Positions 11,449 through 27,600 of a stretch of DNA of 45,380 bases are shown piece after piece. The notes beneath the pieces were generated by a model, which saw nothing but the letters and a program-made list of their open reading frames with translations, ran no database searches and was not told the DNA's origin. Each line of letters starts with the position of its first letter. Within the stretch, counting starts at the first letter, position 1. The stretch comes from a virus: UHGV virus genome UHGV-0107855; one strand, given 5' to 3'. Position numbers and translations under genes: made by a program.

Positions 11449-11483
11449 AAAAAAGCCGCCCCGGTTACTTGGAGCGGCTTTTG
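11449..11483. terminator. Terminator after the RHH gene (probably bidirectional)
   Basis: aaaaaaGCCGC-C-CCgg..ttGGAGCGGCtttt, flanked by A and T runs. Confidence 0.7.
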
Positions 11484-12430: not shown

Positions 12431-12504
12431 GCATGGGAGCCTCACCGCTCCCTCTCATTCTCCCGCCCGGCTCACGCACCCGCGGCGGAAGATATAAAAA
12501 ACGC

Positions 12505-12904: not shown

Positions 12905-13894
12905 ATGCCAACAAGAGCACCCAGAAAATGCATCTCCTGCGGTGGGGTTTTCCTGCCGCAGTACGATGATCAGGTAAAGTGCCCGGATTGCGCCGCAAAA
13001 AGCATTAAGTCCACCATGCGCCCGCGCACCTGCCGCCAGTGCGGCAAGGTGTTTGATGGTGGTCCGCGTGCGTGGTACTGCCCGGACTGCCGCGCCGAGC
13101 GCCAGCGCGAAGCAAACCGCCGTCAACGCGAGAAAGGCACCGTGCGCCCTCTTGGCTCCACCGACTTGTGCGAGGTATGCGGCAAGCCGTATATCGTCAA
13201 GTCAGCACGCCAGCGCTATTGTCCGGACTGCGCCGCCGAGGCGGTCAAAGCCGCCGATAACGCCCAGGGCCGCGCCTATATGGAGGACTACCGCAAGGAG
13301 CGCATCCGCCACACCGACCGATTTTGTAAGGTCTGCGGCGCTGAAATTCCGCCAGACAGCCCGGAAAAGTATTACTGTTCCGATGCCTGCCGCCAGAAAG
13401 CCAAACAGGAGAGCCAGCGCAAGACGGACAGCAAGCGCGGTATAACCGCCGCCCCGCCGAAGTTCGTTCCCTTTCCCAAGATCGTGGAAGCACATGCTGT
13501 CGGCTATGTTCTCCCGCCGCTGTTGCAAGCCGACGGACCATTTGAGATCGTAGAGCGCTATCGCAATGAGGACGGAGAAACCCGTTTCCGCGCACGCTGC
13601 AAAAAGTGTGGCCGCGTGATTGACCGCTCTCAAGTGTACTTTTACTCGTCCGAGGTAAAATCATGCGGTTGCGAAAGAAACCTGCACATAGGCGCAGGCA
13701 AAGCCATTTCGGCGGCGCACGCCAAAATACCGCACATCTGCATGATGTGCGGAGAGCATTTCACCGGCGGCGCGCGGTCTAAATACTGTCCTGCTTGCCG
13801 TAAAAAGCATGTAGCCGAGTTGAGCAGAGACTACTTCCGCCGTAAAGCCGGCTGGACCGAAGAAGAAATCCGTCTCGGCCACAGAATCAAATAG
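12905..13894 (+). CDS. Multi zinc-finger (CxxC..CPxC repeat) protein
   Basis: About six CxxCG..YCPDC-type modules, basic; RBS gggagg. Confidence 0.8.
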   Translation: MPTRAPRKCISCGGVFLPQYDDQVKCPDCAAKSIKSTMRPRTCRQCGKVFDGGPRAWYCPDCRAERQREANRRQREKGTVRPLGSTDLCEVCGKPYIVKSARQRYCPDCAAEAVKAADNAQGRAYMEDYRKERIRHTDRFCKVCGAEIPPDSPEKYYCSDACRQKAKQESQRKTDSKRGITAAPPKFVPFPKIVEAHAVGYVLPPLLQADGPFEIVERYRNEDGETRFRARCKKCGRVIDRSQVYFYSSEVKSCGCERNLHIGAGKAISAAHAKIPHICMMCGEHFTGGARSKYCPACRKKHVAELSRDYFRRKAGWTEEEIRLGHRIK

Positions 13895-13900
13895 CATGAC

Positions 13901-13938
13901 AAACCCCGCTCACCAAAGCCATAAGGTGAGCGGGGTTT
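13901..13938. terminator. Bidirectional terminator between the convergent Zn-finger gene and the ncRNA region
   Basis: AAACCCCGCTCACC-10 nt-GGTGAGCGGGGTTT, a perfect 14-bp stem. Confidence 0.8.
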
Positions 13939-13956
13939 ACCATTATACGACTGTTT

Positions 13957-14000
13957 CGGTTTTGCAGGACTCGCACCTGCTTTCAGCACTATGCAAACCG
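13957..14000 (-). ncRNA. tRNA-like mini element (acceptor stem plus T-arm)
   Basis: CGGUUUG..GCAGG-UGCGAGU-CCUGC-AAAACCG; no anticodon or D arm. Confidence 0.4.
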
Positions 14001-14489
14001 GTATACCTCCACAGGGAGGTATGGGCGCTATCGTCGCGTCTGTACGTCGGGCTTTTACCGAGGCTTGCGCCGCTGTCCAGAACGGTTGTATGAAATCCAG
14101 AAAGGTAATAACCTCACTTTCGCAAGTTTACTTGTGTTTCCGTCCTGATGATTAGGTTGTTTATTGCAAGAGATAAACAGACTGGTGCTCTTTCGTGGCG
14201 TGTACTTAGCCACCCGAAAGCGCCGTATCGGCTTTGTAACTTTGTTAGCAAACTGGTGTTTTGCTCTCGGCTCACTAAGTCCGTGTGAGTGCTTATCCAG
14301 CAGCACTCTCCCTCTCATTATGGGCTGTTCGGCGTTGCTCTCCGTCGTGTCGCAGTTGCTATCGGTCTGTAATCCGGCTGATTTCCTCGTAAGGTTACAG
14401 CGGGGAGCGACCCCGGTCGCGGCGTGCCTGCAAGCACCCGCTGAACTCTGCAAAGCTGTTGCAGCAGCTCCGCATACGTTCGGAAACAG

Positions 14490-15057
14490 ATTGTCCGTCT
14501 TTCCGGACCGCCAGAATATTATCGTCCTCGTTGGAGGCGTTGTGCTCCCTCCGCCTCATGCAGCTTTGGGAACAGATCGCCTTGCACGTCGTCCGTCATG
14601 CAAGGCTTGCCAAAAGTCCGCCACATTGCCCTTGGCTAAAAAGGTTCCATACGTTACCCGTCCGGCCTCATGCAGCCATTCGGGCATGTTTGCGGTGACT
14701 GTTGCCCGCAGGCACCGCATCCCATTCTCAATTTTTAGCGTAAATGTTATTACTCCGTCACCCTCATGCAGGCTTTGGAGCATATCGGCGTGCCGCGCAA
14801 AAGACACGCCGAAAGAATAGAAAGGATAATCAATGCCTTCGTTCCGCGAAAGGCGTTTTGCTCCTCTGCCCTCATGCAGACTTTGGAGCAGGTCAGCGGC
14901 AGGTCTCCCCACCGCTTTAAGTAGGTATTTGGGGTTAAACAGAAAGGCTTGTCACCCGTCAGCCCTCACGCAGGCTTCCGGGCGTGTGCCCGCCTTTCGG
15001 CGGGCTGAAAGCGGAGGAACGAAACTCCGTGATTCCGCCCTTTAGGGCTTTTATCAC
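14490..15057 (-). ncRNA. Array of five 32-nt structured RNA repeats with unique spacers
   Basis: Repeats at 14543-14574, 14655-14686, 14751-14782, 14859-14890 and 14953-14984: stem, 3x3 internal loop, short stem, loop UGCRUGAG; compensatory and G-U changes. Confidence 0.75.
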
Positions 15058-15063
15058 GATATC

Positions 15064-15110
15064 ATTATACCACCATGTTTAGTATTATTGTGTATTGTGT
15101 TTTCCACAAT
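15064..15110 (-). promoter_or_regulatory. Putative activator-dependent late promoter
   Basis: Extended -10 TGGTATAAT (15072-15064), no consensus -35, ACAATA direct repeats upstream, right at the 3' end of the RinA/ArpU-like gene. Confidence 0.65.
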
Positions 15111-15111
15111 G

Positions 15112-15525
15112 TTATGCACAACCTGTGCGTATCCGTTCCACTGCCTGTAAAGCTCTTACATGCATTTCGCCCTTCACATGGGATTCGCTGTAATTCTGGT
15201 TACGCGCCACGTCCCTCCATTTGCATCCGTTTACATACCGGTCGGTTAGCAACGTCCTGAGTTCGTTGCTCGGAACTTTTGCGATCGTGCTGATAATCTC
15301 AGCCCGCACCAGCGCAAGCCGCTCCTGCTCTCGTTTGATTTGATTGTTCAATTCAATGTACGCATCAGCCTTGTTTGCAGTAACATCACCGCCACCGCCC
15401 GGCGTTTCCTTAATAGTCGCCGTTGCACTCGTCGCTCGTGTCCATGCTTTTACACGAGCGTTTTCCAACGACGCAATGTTGTTCTCGATTCCTACGGCAC
15501 GCAAAAGCCATTCTTTAGTCGTCGT
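15112..15525 (-). CDS. RinA/ArpU-like late transcriptional activator
   Basis: RTLLTDRYVNGCKWRDVARNQNYSESHV..HVRAL sigma-r4-like HTH; last gene of the early module. Start uncertain (ACG 15525 or TTG 15504). Confidence 0.75.
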   Translation of the reverse strand, partial: TTTKEWLLRAVGIENNIASLENARVKAWTRATSATATIKETPGGGGDVTANKADAYIELNNQIKREQERLALVRAEIISTIAKVPSNELRTLLTDRYVNGCKWRDVARNQNYSESHVKGEMHVRALQAVERIRTGCA

Positions 15526-15730
15526 GTGCCACTACCTCCTCCATGCCGCGCTGTGTATATCGCCTACGACGGCTTATTCTCGCCGCCTTGCGGACGCAAC
15601 CCACACCCGGTTCACATCCGCGCGATTTCCCCGTGTCTATCAAATAATGACACGCCCATAGCTTAGAGCCTTGGCTTGTACCCAGTACCCGCCAGTATGC
15701 GCACCCAGCGCATTCGCTTTTCTTTTTCAT
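15515..15730 (-). CDS. Small Cys-rich hypothetical protein
   Basis: CAGCAYW..ACHY..RGC..C; translationally coupled with its neighbours. Confidence 0.65.
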   Translation of the reverse strand: MKKKSECAGCAYWRVLGTSQGSKLWACHYLIDTGKSRGCEPGVGCVRKAARISRRRRYTQRGMEEVVAHDD

Positions 15731-19400: not shown

Positions 19401-19524
19401 TCCGTTCCTCCCATTCCTCGCACTGATCATCCTCTAACCGGAAATCCGCCCGGTGCTCGCTGTCGCCGTTGCAGCATACACCGCAGAACGGCTCGTACCA
19501 TTTGCAATCATTGCAATGATTCAT
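19360..19524 (-). CDS. Small Cys-rich protein (54 aa)
   Basis: MNHCNDCKWYEPFCGVCCNGDSEHRADF..CEEWE; ATG overlaps the MTase stop. Confidence 0.6.
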   Translation of the reverse strand: MNHCNDCKWYEPFCGVCCNGDSEHRADFRLEDDQCEEWEERNEICDVKHSPEVV

Positions 19525-21103
19525 ATTCCAAATCTCCGTTTCGTGACCGCAATCGGAAACTCTTCAATCTCACTCGCCCACAGGCACGAGCCTTTTCCGT
19601 TAATCTGTTCCCAGATAAGTGGAAACCCGCCGATACCGTCAAACAGGCTTGCCATAGTGCCAACATGACCGAGCTGCATACACAACCGATAAAGCACAAA
19701 TCGCCAGGGTGGGAGTGCGATAGAGTTACCGAGCGCCTTGTATCGTGCCGCGTCACTGCTTTCCTTGTGGCGTTTGCCTTTTGTGTCTACCCATTCGCCG
19801 ATATCCGTCCAGCCGTCCGGGTAGCCTTGTAGGCGTTCGCATTCGAGCGGGGTAAGGCGGCGGACAGTTGGTGTGCTGATTACGCGCCCAAATGTATCAC
19901 AACGTCCTACGCCCTTATAATCCCTTGCACACAGTGTGCTCGTTTGCTCTTTTCCGTCTAATGTGGTCGGAGTAATAATCGCCATCGGGTCGTGCATACA
20001 GTTCAGCGTCTGGCAAACGTCCGGTGTTAAGTGGTTGGCAATATCGCCTTGTCCATTACCAATGCAAATCGGTACATTGTTTCCACCAGTTCCCATTCTT
20101 GCAGTCAGAGCAGGTGCAGTCCCGTCATAAATCCGTACTGCCTCGGAGCGGTGCTGTATGTCGTAGCAGGTGTCATTGACCAAAATTGTACGTCCTGCTC
20201 CGGTGGCTCCCGATGTATGGCAAGGGTCTCCAAGTTGCGGATTGCTGGCATTCGTCTTGCTGGTAATGGTTTCCTCATTATATACAACTGCCGGTCTATC
20301 AACCGTATTCAGCGTGTAGCTCTGATCTTCGCGCCATCCCTTACCGTTGCACCCTGCGGTTTCTGCGCGGTCTATTCCGTTGCCTTGCAGGCAGAACACC
20401 GTCTGATCGTTACCAGTTCCCAGTGTTCCGCTTTTCTCCGTCTGCACTAAAGCGCCTTTTCCGCCTCCGTCGCATCCGCCTCGGATTCGGACTGCATAAG
20501 CAGCGCCATTTTCAGCTTCTCCGGCAGGTCTTTCCCTCTCCGTTCCGCTCTCCGCAAAATCCCCAAACAGGCTTTTGCGCTCAAACAGTATTTCGGCAGC
20601 GGTGCAGCCTCTAAAATCTGCGACAAGCGCGATTCTACGGCGACGTTGGGGCACTCCCCAGTATTGAGCGTCGAGAGTTCTCCAAGCAACGCTCCATCGT
20701 CCGTCCACGTCGCGGTACCCCCCCATGTCGGCCATCCCTTGCCAGGTACTTCAATATCGGGGGCTTCCGGTTCGACAATGCGGATTGTTTCTTCGAGGAC
20801 GGCCGCAAAGTCCTGCCCTTTGTTGCTACTGAATGCTCCGGGCACGTTTTCCCAGACCATAAATCGAGGGTAAGCTGCTCCACTTGCTTCTCTCATCTCC
20901 TTAACAAGTCGTATTTGCTCCATAAACAGACCGGAACGAGCACCCGCCAGACCGGCACGCTTGCCCGCAATGCTCAAATCCTGACACGGCGAACCGCCTA
21001 TAATGCAGTCAACCCACGGTGCTGTGCGTCCGTCTATTTTGGTAATGTCACCGAGGTGTCTCATACGCCCCACTGCGGCGTTCAAAATTTCATCACTGAC
21101 CAT
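19521..21103 (-). pseudogene. C5-cytosine DNA methyltransferase main (alpha) chain, frameshifted at a G7 tract (20718-20724); probably phase-variable OFF state
   Basis: The N-part has GGSPCQD and ENV. The C-part, in another frame, has QRRRR, RRLTPLECERLQG, GNS and SLFDGIGG. One extra G joins them into 527 aa. Confidence 0.85.
20447..20883 (-). pseudogene. Overlapping alternative-frame (EcoHK31I beta-like) MTase subunit, broken by the same G7 tract
   Basis: GTG 20883 with RBS aaggag; with G8 it reads MEQLTLDL..HGGG-TATW..SRLSQILE..KYCLSAKACLGILRRAERRGKDLP (145 aa). Confidence 0.7.
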
Positions 21104-21470
21104 CCTCATCCGCTCCCAAAATCTCAACCACAATCCTCGGATTTTTCGCGTCCACCTCAAAGTGATCTTCAAACCCTCTGATATTCTTCCATCCGTCGTT
21201 CGACAAATACCTCGCTTTCACCAACGCATCTTGAATCACCTTTCTGCCGAACGCGCAGATATTATCCTTGTCCCGCCGTCGGTCTTTCTCGTACCAGTAA
21301 TAAATCATATACACCGGCTCCTCAAACTCCACGTTTCCGAGCTGTCTTGCCGCGTGCATCACAACGGTTTCGCACTTCTTCTTGAGTTGTGCGCCTAAGT
21401 ACCGGTTGCGCCGTTCCGCCTCTATCAACTCATTCAGTCCCGGCAGCGGGCCTTTGATTACAAATTTCAT
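21093..21470 (-). CDS. rusA: RusA-like Holliday junction resolvase
   Basis: LPGLNE..RRRDKDNI..KVIQDALV..NDG..PRIVVEI. Confidence 0.8.
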   Translation of the reverse strand: MKFVIKGPLPGLNELIEAERRNRYLGAQLKKKCETVVMHAARQLGNVEFEEPVYMIYYWYEKDRRRDKDNICAFGRKVIQDALVKARYLSNDGWKNIRGFEDHFEVDAKNPRIVVEILGADEDGQ

Positions 21471-24861: not shown

Positions 24862-25117
24862 TGCGCAGTGCCTCCAAAACGTCCTCGTCATGCACGATTT
24901 CCGTTTTTCCGTCTTTCGTTTTCGCCCATGCCTCATCACCAATGCGGGTATAATATTCCTTTGCTCCAGTGATCTTTTTGTCTTCGACATTCATCAGCCA
25001 AACCGAAGCGGTATATCCCAGTGTAGAAACATTCATGTCAATGCCTGTATCCGCTTCGCTGTCCTGTTTTTCAAGAACCAGATCAAGCAGGCTGTGAAAC
25101 AGCTTCTTGTCTTTCAT
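24854..25117 (-). CDS. Hypothetical protein
   Basis: 87-aa ORF in the operon, TAATG-coupled. Confidence 0.65.
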   Translation of the reverse strand: MKDKKLFHSLLDLVLEKQDSEADTGIDMNVSTLGYTASVWLMNVEDKKITGAKEYYTRIGDEAWAKTKDGKTEIVHDEDVLEALRNA

Positions 25118-26079
25118 TATTCATCCACCTCTATAATCGCGCCGTTTTTCAGCATATAAAACGTATCCGCTTTGATGGTTTCTCCATCTACGCAAACAGC
25201 CTGAACGCCTAAAATGTGCATTTTTTCATCACGTTCCGTGAGCACCAGCCAACAGCCGACAGCACCTTTCGCTTTGCTGCCATACCCGGTAACGACCGCA
25301 ATGCTTTCCGCTCCTCCAACCGTAGCGGCGCTCCAGTTGCCCGTGTTTGTGGCGGCGCTCCGGTCGCCTGTGTTTGTGGCGGCGCTCCAGTTGCCCGTGT
25401 TTGTGGCGGCGCTCCGGTCGCCTGTGTTTGTGGCGGCGCTCTGTTCGCCCGTGTTTGTGGCGGCGCTCCGGGCGCCCGTGTTTGTGGCGGCGCTCTGGTA
25501 GCCTGTGTTCGTGGCGGCGCTCTGGTTGCCCGTGTTTGTGGCGGCGCTCTGGTTGCCCGTATTTGTGGCGGCGCTCTGGTTGCCCGTATTTGTGGCGGCG
25601 CTCTGGTAGCCTGTGTTTGTGGCGGCGCTCCGGGCGCCCGTGTTCGTGGCGGCGCTCTGGTTGCCCGTGTTCATGGCGGCGCTCCGGTCGCCCGTGTTTG
25701 TGGCGGCGCTCCAGTCGCCTGTGTTTGTGGCGGCGCTCTGGTCGCCTGTGTTACTCTCTTTCGCGCTCTTAAAATCCACTTTTTCCAGAATGAACTTCAC
25801 GCCAGCCTAAATCATCCCTGAAAGGCCAATCTCTGTTTCAATCTTTATTTTTTTGCCAACCCGCTTGCTGTCCTCCTCAGTCTGCTCGTTAGTATCCAAA
25901 TCTACCTCGCAGTAACGCGAATCTGCCGGGTTGTAGTATCCGAATACGTCCATCGGGTTCTCGCAGGCGTGGAAACCCTTATGGCAAATATCCGCCGTGT
26001 TTTCCTCGTACTCTTTGCCGATTTCGTACTGAAAACCACGGCATTTCAAGTCCTTGTCAAAGCCTTTGTAGCATTTCAC
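25117..26079 (-). pseudogene. Repeat-containing phage protein (YKGF..CRGFQYE.G..GFHAC N-domain plus SAATNTG repeats) split by one in-frame TAG
   Basis: ..GLSGMI*AGVKFILEKV..; stop at 25807-25809, same frame on both sides. Confidence 0.75.
25321..25752 (-). repeat. 16 x 27-bp coding tandem repeat (NTGxxSAAT)
   Basis: Counted from the translation; variation is almost confined to two codons per unit. Confidence 0.9.
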
Positions 26080-26452: not shown

Positions 26453-26704
26453 TCACCTCCACTCCGTCCAGAAACAACCCTCGCCGATGCCGCAAGTACG
26501 GCTCATGAGAGCCGGCTCGCCGTCCTCGCCCTCGAAGATTTTGTCCTCGAAAGAATACTCCGGCTTGTCCTCGGTGCCGAACCATCCCTCGCCCTCGCAG
26601 GTTTCCGGGTTGTACTGGGTGAAGTACCAGCCTAACCCCTGCGGGACTTCTCGCTTGTCCCAGTCTGGCAAGCTAAACTGCCGGAAATATTCATGCTTTG
26701 TCAT
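26453..26704 (-). CDS. Hypothetical acidic, aromatic-rich protein
   Basis: 83 aa; coupled to the upstream ORF. Confidence 0.65.
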   Translation of the reverse strand: MTKHEYFRQFSLPDWDKREVPQGLGWYFTQYNPETCEGEGWFGTEDKPEYSFEDKIFEGEDGEPALMSRTCGIGEGCFWTEWR

Positions 26705-27104: not shown

Positions 27105-27600
27105 AGGGTTATTCTTTTCTTTCTTTCTTAGAAAGTTAAATTTATATATATTCGACCGTAGGGAGAATATATATACTTCTTTTCTTTCTTTGTTACTTTC
27201 TTTCTTAAGCCTCGGTGTGTTATCTGTGTGTTATCGGTCTGTTATCGGTCTGTTGCTTTGTGTGTTGATGGTCTGTTGCTAGAGTGTTAGCTAACGCCGT
27301 TTTACGTTTCCCGCTCGACGCTTTGCAATGTCACTTGCAATATCACCGAGGTAGTAAACTACCCGCCGCTCTCCTTCAACTCGCGGTGCGCCGATAACGT
27401 CCTTTGCCGACCGTTTATCCCGAAATCCGTATACTTTAGCCGCCTGTTCAAGCGTTAAAAGTACGGCTCCCGGAAAGAGCTGTTCAAGGTCGTTTTTGAC
27501 CTCCTGCCGCAGCGCTTTGTATGTCCGTTCCTCCAATTTCAGCCCTCCGTTCTGTGTGTTAGTTGCCTGTTAGCAGACTGTTAGCAGACTGTTAGATGTG
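27105..27600. repeat. Putative replication origin: two clusters of about 11-bp iterons plus an AT-rich segment
   Basis: ..TGTT(A/G).. repeats with about 11-bp period at 27214-27292 and 27552-27596 (cagactgttag x2, ggtctgtt x3); AT-rich 27110-27210. Confidence 0.6.
27291..27536 (-). CDS. HTH DNA-binding protein (excisionase-like)
   Basis: LLTLEQAAKVYG..VYYLGDIA; TTG start with RBS ggaggg. Confidence 0.65.
   Translation of the reverse strand: MEERTYKALRQEVKNDLEQLFPGAVLLTLEQAAKVYGFRDKRSAKDVIGAPRVEGERRVVYYLGDIASDIAKRRAGNVKRR

Follow-up and report, generated by a model that had tools for sequence, protein, structure and literature searches.

Short structured repeats interspaced by unique sequences make up TIGR-Tas arrays, which have a Nop-domain gene adjacent to them, and CRISPR loci share this general layout; type III toxin-antitoxin loci comprise an array of head-to-tail repeats followed by the toxin gene. 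Among prophage-borne RNAs, the non-coding arrays beside UG27 reverse transcriptases (RT) consist of structure-conserved, sequence-diverse units of 135–167 nt with a pseudoknot, which are gained and lost (bioRxiv 10.64898/2026.09.22.753630), and ROOL and GOLLD are large structured non-coding RNAs found in prophages near tRNAs (PMC5737381). StxS and lambda 6S are non-coding RNAs located directly behind phage late promoters; StxS, a single sRNA of E. coli involving Hfq and RNase E, is processed out of a longer leader and works through base pairing (PMC7547250). HK022 put and lambda nut/boxB are single sites behind early promoters, with a conserved loop and downstream terminators, and put is a double hairpin of ~65 nt for which no phage protein is needed (PMC8632103); lambda nut needs a cognate Arg-rich N-like protein. 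The Firmicutes sRNAs RoxS and FsrA are host-encoded single genes that bind mRNAs through unpaired, C-rich seeds that can pair with purine-rich sites, and RoxS is trimmed by RNase Y (PMC8216469).

The window, by which we mean the whole 45,380-nt stretch of DNA analyzed, is a phage of temperate type with integrase, repressor, replication, terminase, portal, capsid and lysis genes. The sole match to its repeat pattern in the genome collection was a contig (L173) from a bin labelled Subdoligranulum variabile; as this contig is phage DNA, the host assignment is loose. The array DNA was present in 1 of 401 genomes of the family-level set. Related loci were collected as 97 stretches from IMG/VR and 88 from a metagenome scan, redundant contigs included, and have one to five units (modules) per array. 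Three diverging array lineages were distinguished: family A (activator 64–100% identical, up to five modules), family B (activator 47–49% identical, 3–4 modules) and family D (L533, two modules), with B and D carrying other linkers behind the same repeat. In the window, the array starts ~130 bases behind a regulator gene, with two 7-nt repeats and then an extended −10 box in between. The flanking features are:

15515..15730, minus strand, small Cys/His protein with an Arg-rich tail upstream of the activator, found in 15/15 family A and 23/24 family B loci
15112..15504, minus strand, late-gene activator-like ORF of ~130 aa (phrog_36, E 4.6e-12; phrog_248 "transcriptional activator", E 5.5e-5)
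15087..15100, minus strand, two tandem 7-nt direct repeats, read from the sequence
15064..15072, minus strand, extended −10 promoter box with no consensus −35, the −10 box being kept in relatives
11451..11482, minus strand, intrinsic-terminator-like site ~30 nt before the terS start (terminator scan)

Against Pfam, the activator-like ORF matched Phage_antitermQ with an E value of 0.0021, below the cut-off, making it weakly Q-like. From its position and size it can be labelled a putative ArpU/RinA-type late activator, with a surrounding gene layout as described for this type, and the direct repeats are likely its binding site, by analogy with the 7-nt repeats that bind ArpU at the equivalent position (PMC3753634). 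The −10 box was not among the predictions of a sigma-70 scan; it lies at 15072–15064, directly ahead of the array as the initial annotation had it, and the predicted setting of the array in this temperate gut phage is downstream of a late promoter of the ArpU/RinA type. Accessory genes on the opposite strand lie between the array and terS. The terminator-like site before terS recurs 32 nt ahead of terS in a family B record (G158), and late transcription would have to read through it.

Several observations concern other parts of this genome. One of the accessory genes (12905–13894, plus strand) encodes a 329-aa multi-zinc-ribbon protein facing the non-coding RNA, found in 6/15 family A loci. 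Between two accessory genes, a strong hairpin at 12460–12490 (minus strand; z −3.38) has a loop like that of the repeat and is kept in L173 and L278, and did not score with either covariance model. A C-5 DNA methyltransferase appears split into overlapping ORFs (20447–21172 and 19521–20735, minus strand; together 19521–21172) that match the same families. Two adjoining ORFs at 25117–26079 (minus strand), separated by an in-frame stop, each match a different half of phrog_4433; the second-half ORF is a tandem repeat protein. In the early region behind cro, short tandem repeats at 27180–27260 and 27560–27600 (minus strand), possibly origin iterons, accompany long A/T-rich non-coding stretches.

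The array itself is, by sequence comparison, the 5′ half of a non-coding, gene-free stretch of ~1.15 kb, because relatives share more than the repeats: the leader hairpin and the second small repeat are common to families A, B and D, and a covarying 3′ domain with a tRNA-like tail is present in most relatives, some family B loci having a different structured stretch instead. The stretch comprises the following features:

15029..15057, minus strand, leader hairpin with a purine-rich internal loop (predicted fold; counterparts in families B and D)
15005..15028, minus strand, leader linker with an anti-Shine-Dalgarno (anti-SD) motif (motif count)
14953..15005, minus strand, module 1: GC hairpin 15005–14988 and repeat 14984–14953 (fold z −5.99)
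14917..14952, minus strand, linker 1, unpaired, with an anti-SD motif; almost no variation within family A over its first 25 nt
14859..14916, minus strand, module 2: GC hairpin 14916–14895 and repeat 14890–14859 (fold z −3.77)
14813..14858, minus strand, linker 2: small hairpin followed by a sequence exactly antisense to an ideal SD plus start codon (conservation 0.983)
14751..14812, minus strand, module 3: GC hairpin 14812–14785 and repeat 14782–14751 (fold z −3.99)
14720..14750, minus strand, linker 3, A/U-rich, no anti-SD motif, the most variable linker (relatives' alignment)
14655..14719, minus strand, module 4: GC hairpin 14719–14691 and repeat 14686–14655 (fold z −2.55)
14607..14654, minus strand, linker 4, anti-SD-like motif; related linker in some family B arrays
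14543..14606, minus strand, module 5: GC hairpin 14606–14579 and repeat 14574–14543 (fold z −4.10)
14516..14542, minus strand, linker 5, anti-SD motif within a short stem (fold and motif count)
14493..14516, minus strand, second repeat type: 5-bp covarying hairpin with a purine hexaloop, one copy here and 2–3 in families B and D
14290..14490, minus strand, structured 3′ domain, common to families A, B (part) and D
13957..14000, minus strand, tRNA-like T-arm/acceptor mini-element (by eye; weak), with a family B counterpart ending in CCA
13896..13943, no strand assigned, strong hairpin with 19-nt arms, adjoining the stop of the opposite-strand ORF 12905–13894

The initial annotation had reported five covarying 32-nt hairpins with unique spacers, structured as minus-strand RNA and each preceded by a GC hairpin, all of which was confirmed, with the repeats at the stated coordinates. 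Hairpins of this kind occur five times in the window compared to a mean of 0.007 (maximum 1) in 300 shuffles. The covariance model that had been proposed as a check scored the five repeats at 44–52 bits, and no other site in the window exceeded 13 bits. The array region folds better as minus-strand RNA (z −6.85) than as plus strand (z −3.38), and minus-strand stems of 48 distinct repeats from relatives contain 110 G-U as opposed to 4 A-C pairs, although the pattern by which these repeats were selected favours pairing. In 25 diverse repeats, 92.9% of cells were paired and 7/9 pairs had changed on both sides, a level of covariation reached by 1/500 shuffles; another analysis of this kind gave a similar result. 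The repeats are 67–75% identical to the reference copy and are separated by spacers of 62, 76, 64 and 80 nt (unit spacing 94–112), with gaps of 3, 4, 2, 4 and 4 nt between GC hairpin and repeat (repeats 1–5). The true unit is thus a double hairpin of 54–67 nt: a variable GC hairpin, 2–4 nt, and a conserved hairpin. Two structural details had to be redrawn. The loop is conserved as claimed, but the first and last letters of its eight pair with each other (U-G, replaced by C-G in several relatives), so that, judging from the sequences, it is better drawn as a hexaloop GCRYGA closed by U-G or C-G; and the 3x3 internal loop is one register among those possible: repeats 1 and 4 have a 2x2 internal loop and repeat 2 a 4-nt bulge in the energy model.

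The module belongs to no known family tested, in line with the earlier suggestion of an undescribed RNA. Searches against Rfam gave no match at gathering score in the window, none at E ≤ 10 in 13600–15200 and none at E ≤ 1 in the relatives; no Rfam ribozyme model of a known self-cleaving ribozyme matched the module, ARAGORN called no tRNA at the locus, and no INPHARED phage matched the repeat pattern. We found no published description of the motif, which may be among the 10,006 viral candidate RNAs listed in PMC10690425.

The 3′ half of the stretch bears on whether the repeats are peripheral parts of one large, uncut structural RNA occupying the slot of ROOL and GOLLD, with loops that dock on receptors or mediate multimerisation. 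In the 3′ domain, 11/42 predicted pairs have changed on both sides (7 sequences), and its core motif has at least one repeat upstream in 65/65 IMG/VR stretches. A tRNA-like element at the 3′ end likewise recalls the tRNA-proximal location of those RNAs; this element was not called by ARAGORN and is not favoured in the minimum free energy fold (z −0.10). The strong hairpin at 13896–13943 is likely the end of the non-coding RNA, and was not listed as terminator-like by the terminator scan. We nevertheless regard a single structural RNA as rather improbable: no ROOL or GOLLD covariance model, nor any other in Rfam, matches here, the modular 5′ array sets the RNA apart, units are freely deleted, the module occurs elsewhere without the 3′ domain, and a long-range pairing between the leader and repeat 5 showed no covariation in relatives.

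Arrays of the relatives differ by whole units, which have been deleted or swapped in a modular fashion. Among 74 distinct family A arrays, 47 have linkers 1–5, 12 lack unit 1 and 15 have other deletions, a pattern of loss that would be expected from recombination between repeats. When conservation was compared by position in 56 distinct family A arrays, however, linkers (0.952) were about as conserved as repeats (0.971). The initial annotation had viewed the array as modular sRNAs with variable guides and had named equal conservation of spacers and repeats across relatives as evidence against this; among close relatives that is what was found. Its modular side stands, given the exchange of units and the different linkers of divergent lineages, while guides that vary in the CRISPR sense do not. 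As linkers are fixed by position among close relatives, there is no sign of CRISPR-like spacer acquisition, and a programmable CRISPR- or TIGR-like guide array that acquires spacers for a dedicated effector, despite its repeat-spacer look, is largely refuted. No cas, Nop or RT family was matched among 68 ORFs with PHROGs, 62 with PADLOC or 68 with Pfam, as the initial annotation had also concluded. In addition, no long protospacer-like match was found outside the array in 10 phage records, and the repeat also occurs singly in an mRNA context. Compared to CRISPR, the array has no cas genes, no near-identical known repeat and stems that differ between repeats, and its structured, fixed spacers of 62–80 nt are non-uniform and show no strain turnover. 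TIGR-Tas is set apart by its Nop-domain gene, absent here (Pfam, PHROGs) along with any effector gene, and UG27 arrays by their RT and longer units, those here being ~95–110 nt. Unlike in type III toxin-antitoxin loci, the repeats are interspaced, and the neighbouring ORFs had no PADLOC match. Of 60 IMG/VR stretches matching a triple-loop pattern, the 12 examined as candidates for further lineages proved to be repeats in coding sequence or chance matches, and 4/4 matches to a second pattern were due to chance.

A new observation, missed by the initial annotation as was the remainder of the longer structured RNA, is that four unrelated phage groups have single copies of the same or a related hairpin, located in sense orientation either between genes or ahead of them. 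In large AT-rich gut phages (L244, L283, L299), which have only three proteins in common with the window, a solitary double hairpin is located ~35–45 nt before the SD, with one copy per record in 5/5 records and a Pistol ribozyme one gene downstream. In prophage G151, solitary modules directly precede the SD of early genes, a prophage piece (G368) has a copy between genes, and in three genomes a loop-sharing variant with another stem precedes GP20-b and a scaffold gene. The scan for solitary copies returned 47 stretches, 6 of which are solitary double hairpins and 41 not hairpins. Covariance-model searches matched 10/151 genomes of the family set, 13/151 of the order, 9/63 of the genus and 13/151 of the class; after inspection of the 10 from the family set and 34 of the 35 non-G002 matches from the others (L507 left out), G151, L501, L502, L503 and L506 were kept, and L486, L493, L513, L514 and L521 were rejected as lying inside ORFs. 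Other RNAs were seen in these phages: a Pistol ribozyme as well as a RAGATH-18 RNA in G153, one of the large phages (L479 4958–5032 and L478 3896–3968), an odd tRNA-like gene with a long arm in the early operon of G151 just before the solitary modules (L217 1246–1344), and, in G326, skipping-rope RNA, a loop-sharing hairpin and GP20-b RNA consecutively before the scaffold gene (L506 1319–1614).

The solitary copies are all oriented in sense with transcription. This co-orientation of all credible copies argues against hairpins acting at the DNA level (REP- or attC-like) and against remnants of deleted gene cassettes with inverted start regions. Nearby opposite-strand moron genes could leave linkers resembling inverted translation starts, and G-T pairs would be tolerated in single-stranded DNA too, but linkers as conserved as repeats are unlike leftovers, no Y1 transposase or integron integrase was matched, and the antisense 70-aa ORF 14833–15045 has no family and is disrupted in L173 (by eye). 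Both explanations seem very improbable.

The solitary copies are also informative with respect to protein partners. The Cys/His protein at 15515–15730 is the counterpart candidate for an N-like protein, but it found no support as a dedicated Zn-finger/Arg-rich RNA-binding partner: it was seen in families A and B only and was not found in the solitary-hairpin phages, several other carriers being fragments, and it belongs to a widespread family (293 distant clusters). The hairpin is therefore more likely to be read by a host factor, or by no protein at all. One such role would be the put- or nut-like antitermination that the initial annotation had named as an alternative, with double hairpins that bind RNA polymerase or a Nus-type factor and let late transcription pass the moron region and the terS terminator. 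The modules have the size of put and stand right behind a promoter, the hexaloop reads as GNRA plus two extra letters, resembling boxB, and in G153 and G151 strong early promoters precede the solitary copies at a distance of one to a few genes. The terminator before terS in families A and B gives such a model a job to do. On the other hand, terminator prediction over ~4 kb downstream of these solitary copies gave no strong site on the same strand (two weak 5-pair matches for G153 and one for G151), the GP20-b-associated copies have terminators upstream of them and a U run after them, and the activator is itself weakly Q-like, with ArpU-type proteins having sufficed for terS expression in reporters (PMC3753634). 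Tandem copies, five of them here, and conserved anti-SD linkers would also be left unexplained, put and nut being single sites and activity here being putative. We consider antitermination the main rival to the explanation favoured below, at a fairly low probability.

Alternatively, the array could be a multivalent decoy, analogous to CsrB, that soaks up a host protein binding the hexaloop hairpin, such as a factor used by other phages' solitary sites or a defence factor. A conserved loop on exchangeable stems in one to five copies would suit a decoy, as would solitary sites in other phages and none in array carriers, and an alternative pairing between the 5′ arm and the SD is conceivable in G151 (by eye). 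The 16S rRNA offers some resemblance: in the candidate host genus its 3′ end has 9 nt in common with linker 2, and the tetraloop core of 16S helix 9 in this genus (L595–L600) matches five letters of the repeat loop, which may be chance. With this resemblance being short, no binding protein known, and the obligatory upstream GC hairpin and conserved linkers not accounted for, the decoy appears unlikely.

The linkers had been described as anti-SD spacers, which is borne out as an enrichment: 9/13 linker types contain the motif compared to 0.99 expected, or 5/8 against 0.48 after merging likely homologues, the motif having been chosen after the data were seen. The description does not extend to linker 3 or to three family B linkers, which lack the motif, and in linker 5 it is paired. 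As in RoxS and FsrA, which have no repeat handle, such single-stranded C-rich seeds could pair with purine-rich mRNA sites. No specific target was singled out in the phage, its relatives or, for linker 2 only, the candidate host genus. The best pairings with the phage's own gene starts comprised 8–13 contiguous pairs, not clearly above the control phages G153 and G151 (8–13), and 13 pairs between the leader linker and the beginning of ORF 26453–26704 were discarded because relatives do not keep them. Complements of linker 2 occurred in 14/63 genomes of the candidate host genus, in unrelated genes, with long ORFs in 3 of the 12 inspected; in G002, linker 2 matched the array itself, one coding stretch and nothing else.

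Contigs from RNA libraries of two studies (X1, X4, X6) cover 14072–14549 and 14630–14908, thus portions of both the array and the 3′ domain; DNA may be present in these libraries and the contigs carry neither strand nor end information. No contig in X1, X4 or X6 covers the activator or other flanking genes, a contrast that ranks nothing since the runs were found via the non-coding stretch. Runs X2, X3, X7 and X8 may be DNA, and X11 held only a 46-nt piece of another sequence.

Our favoured explanation, with a probability of about 0.4, is that the double hairpin serves as an RNA processing or protection signal, marking the points at which a precursor is divided into small antisense RNAs. The ~1.15-kb stretch would be transcribed from the promoter at 15072, and a host factor would recognise the hexaloop hairpin, no phage partner travelling with it. 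Cleavage at the 2–4-nt junction would leave each piece with a conserved hairpin at its 5′ end and a GC hairpin at its 3′ end, giving small RNAs of ~95–110 nt, each with a fixed C/U-rich linker for which base pairing to ribosome-binding sites is predicted and which may thereby silence translation. The same signal would cap an mRNA where an SD and ORF follow, as in the solitary copies, and an antisense RNA where an anti-SD follows, as in the array. This explanation is favoured because one rule covers both contexts and also explains the conserved single-stranded linkers. To be set against it are the absence of an identified nuclease or chaperone and of RNA ends in the contig data, the lack of targets above control phages, and linker 3 without the motif. 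StxS provides a precedent for an sRNA cut from a late-promoter leader (PMC7547250), although the array has one to five units in a Clostridia phage, no sequence link to StxS and processing that is predicted only. More tentatively, the locus may represent a phage-borne, Cas-less polycistronic antisense system, in which a portable host-read signal punctuates mRNAs when alone and releases exchangeable anti-SD sRNAs when in tandem, silencing genes of the host or of rival phages.

Should the module prove to be a processing signal, gut Clostridia would have one of the rare defined elements for RNA cutting or protection, on which multiplex antisense RNAs could naturally be built for hosts lacking good tools. 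Should it instead be an antiterminator, it would represent put-like RNAs in Gram-positive hosts, of which we found no report in the literature searched. As a 60-nt element available both singly and arrayed, it makes the question directly testable with reporters, and it bears on the role of structured RNAs behind the late promoters of Firmicutes phages.
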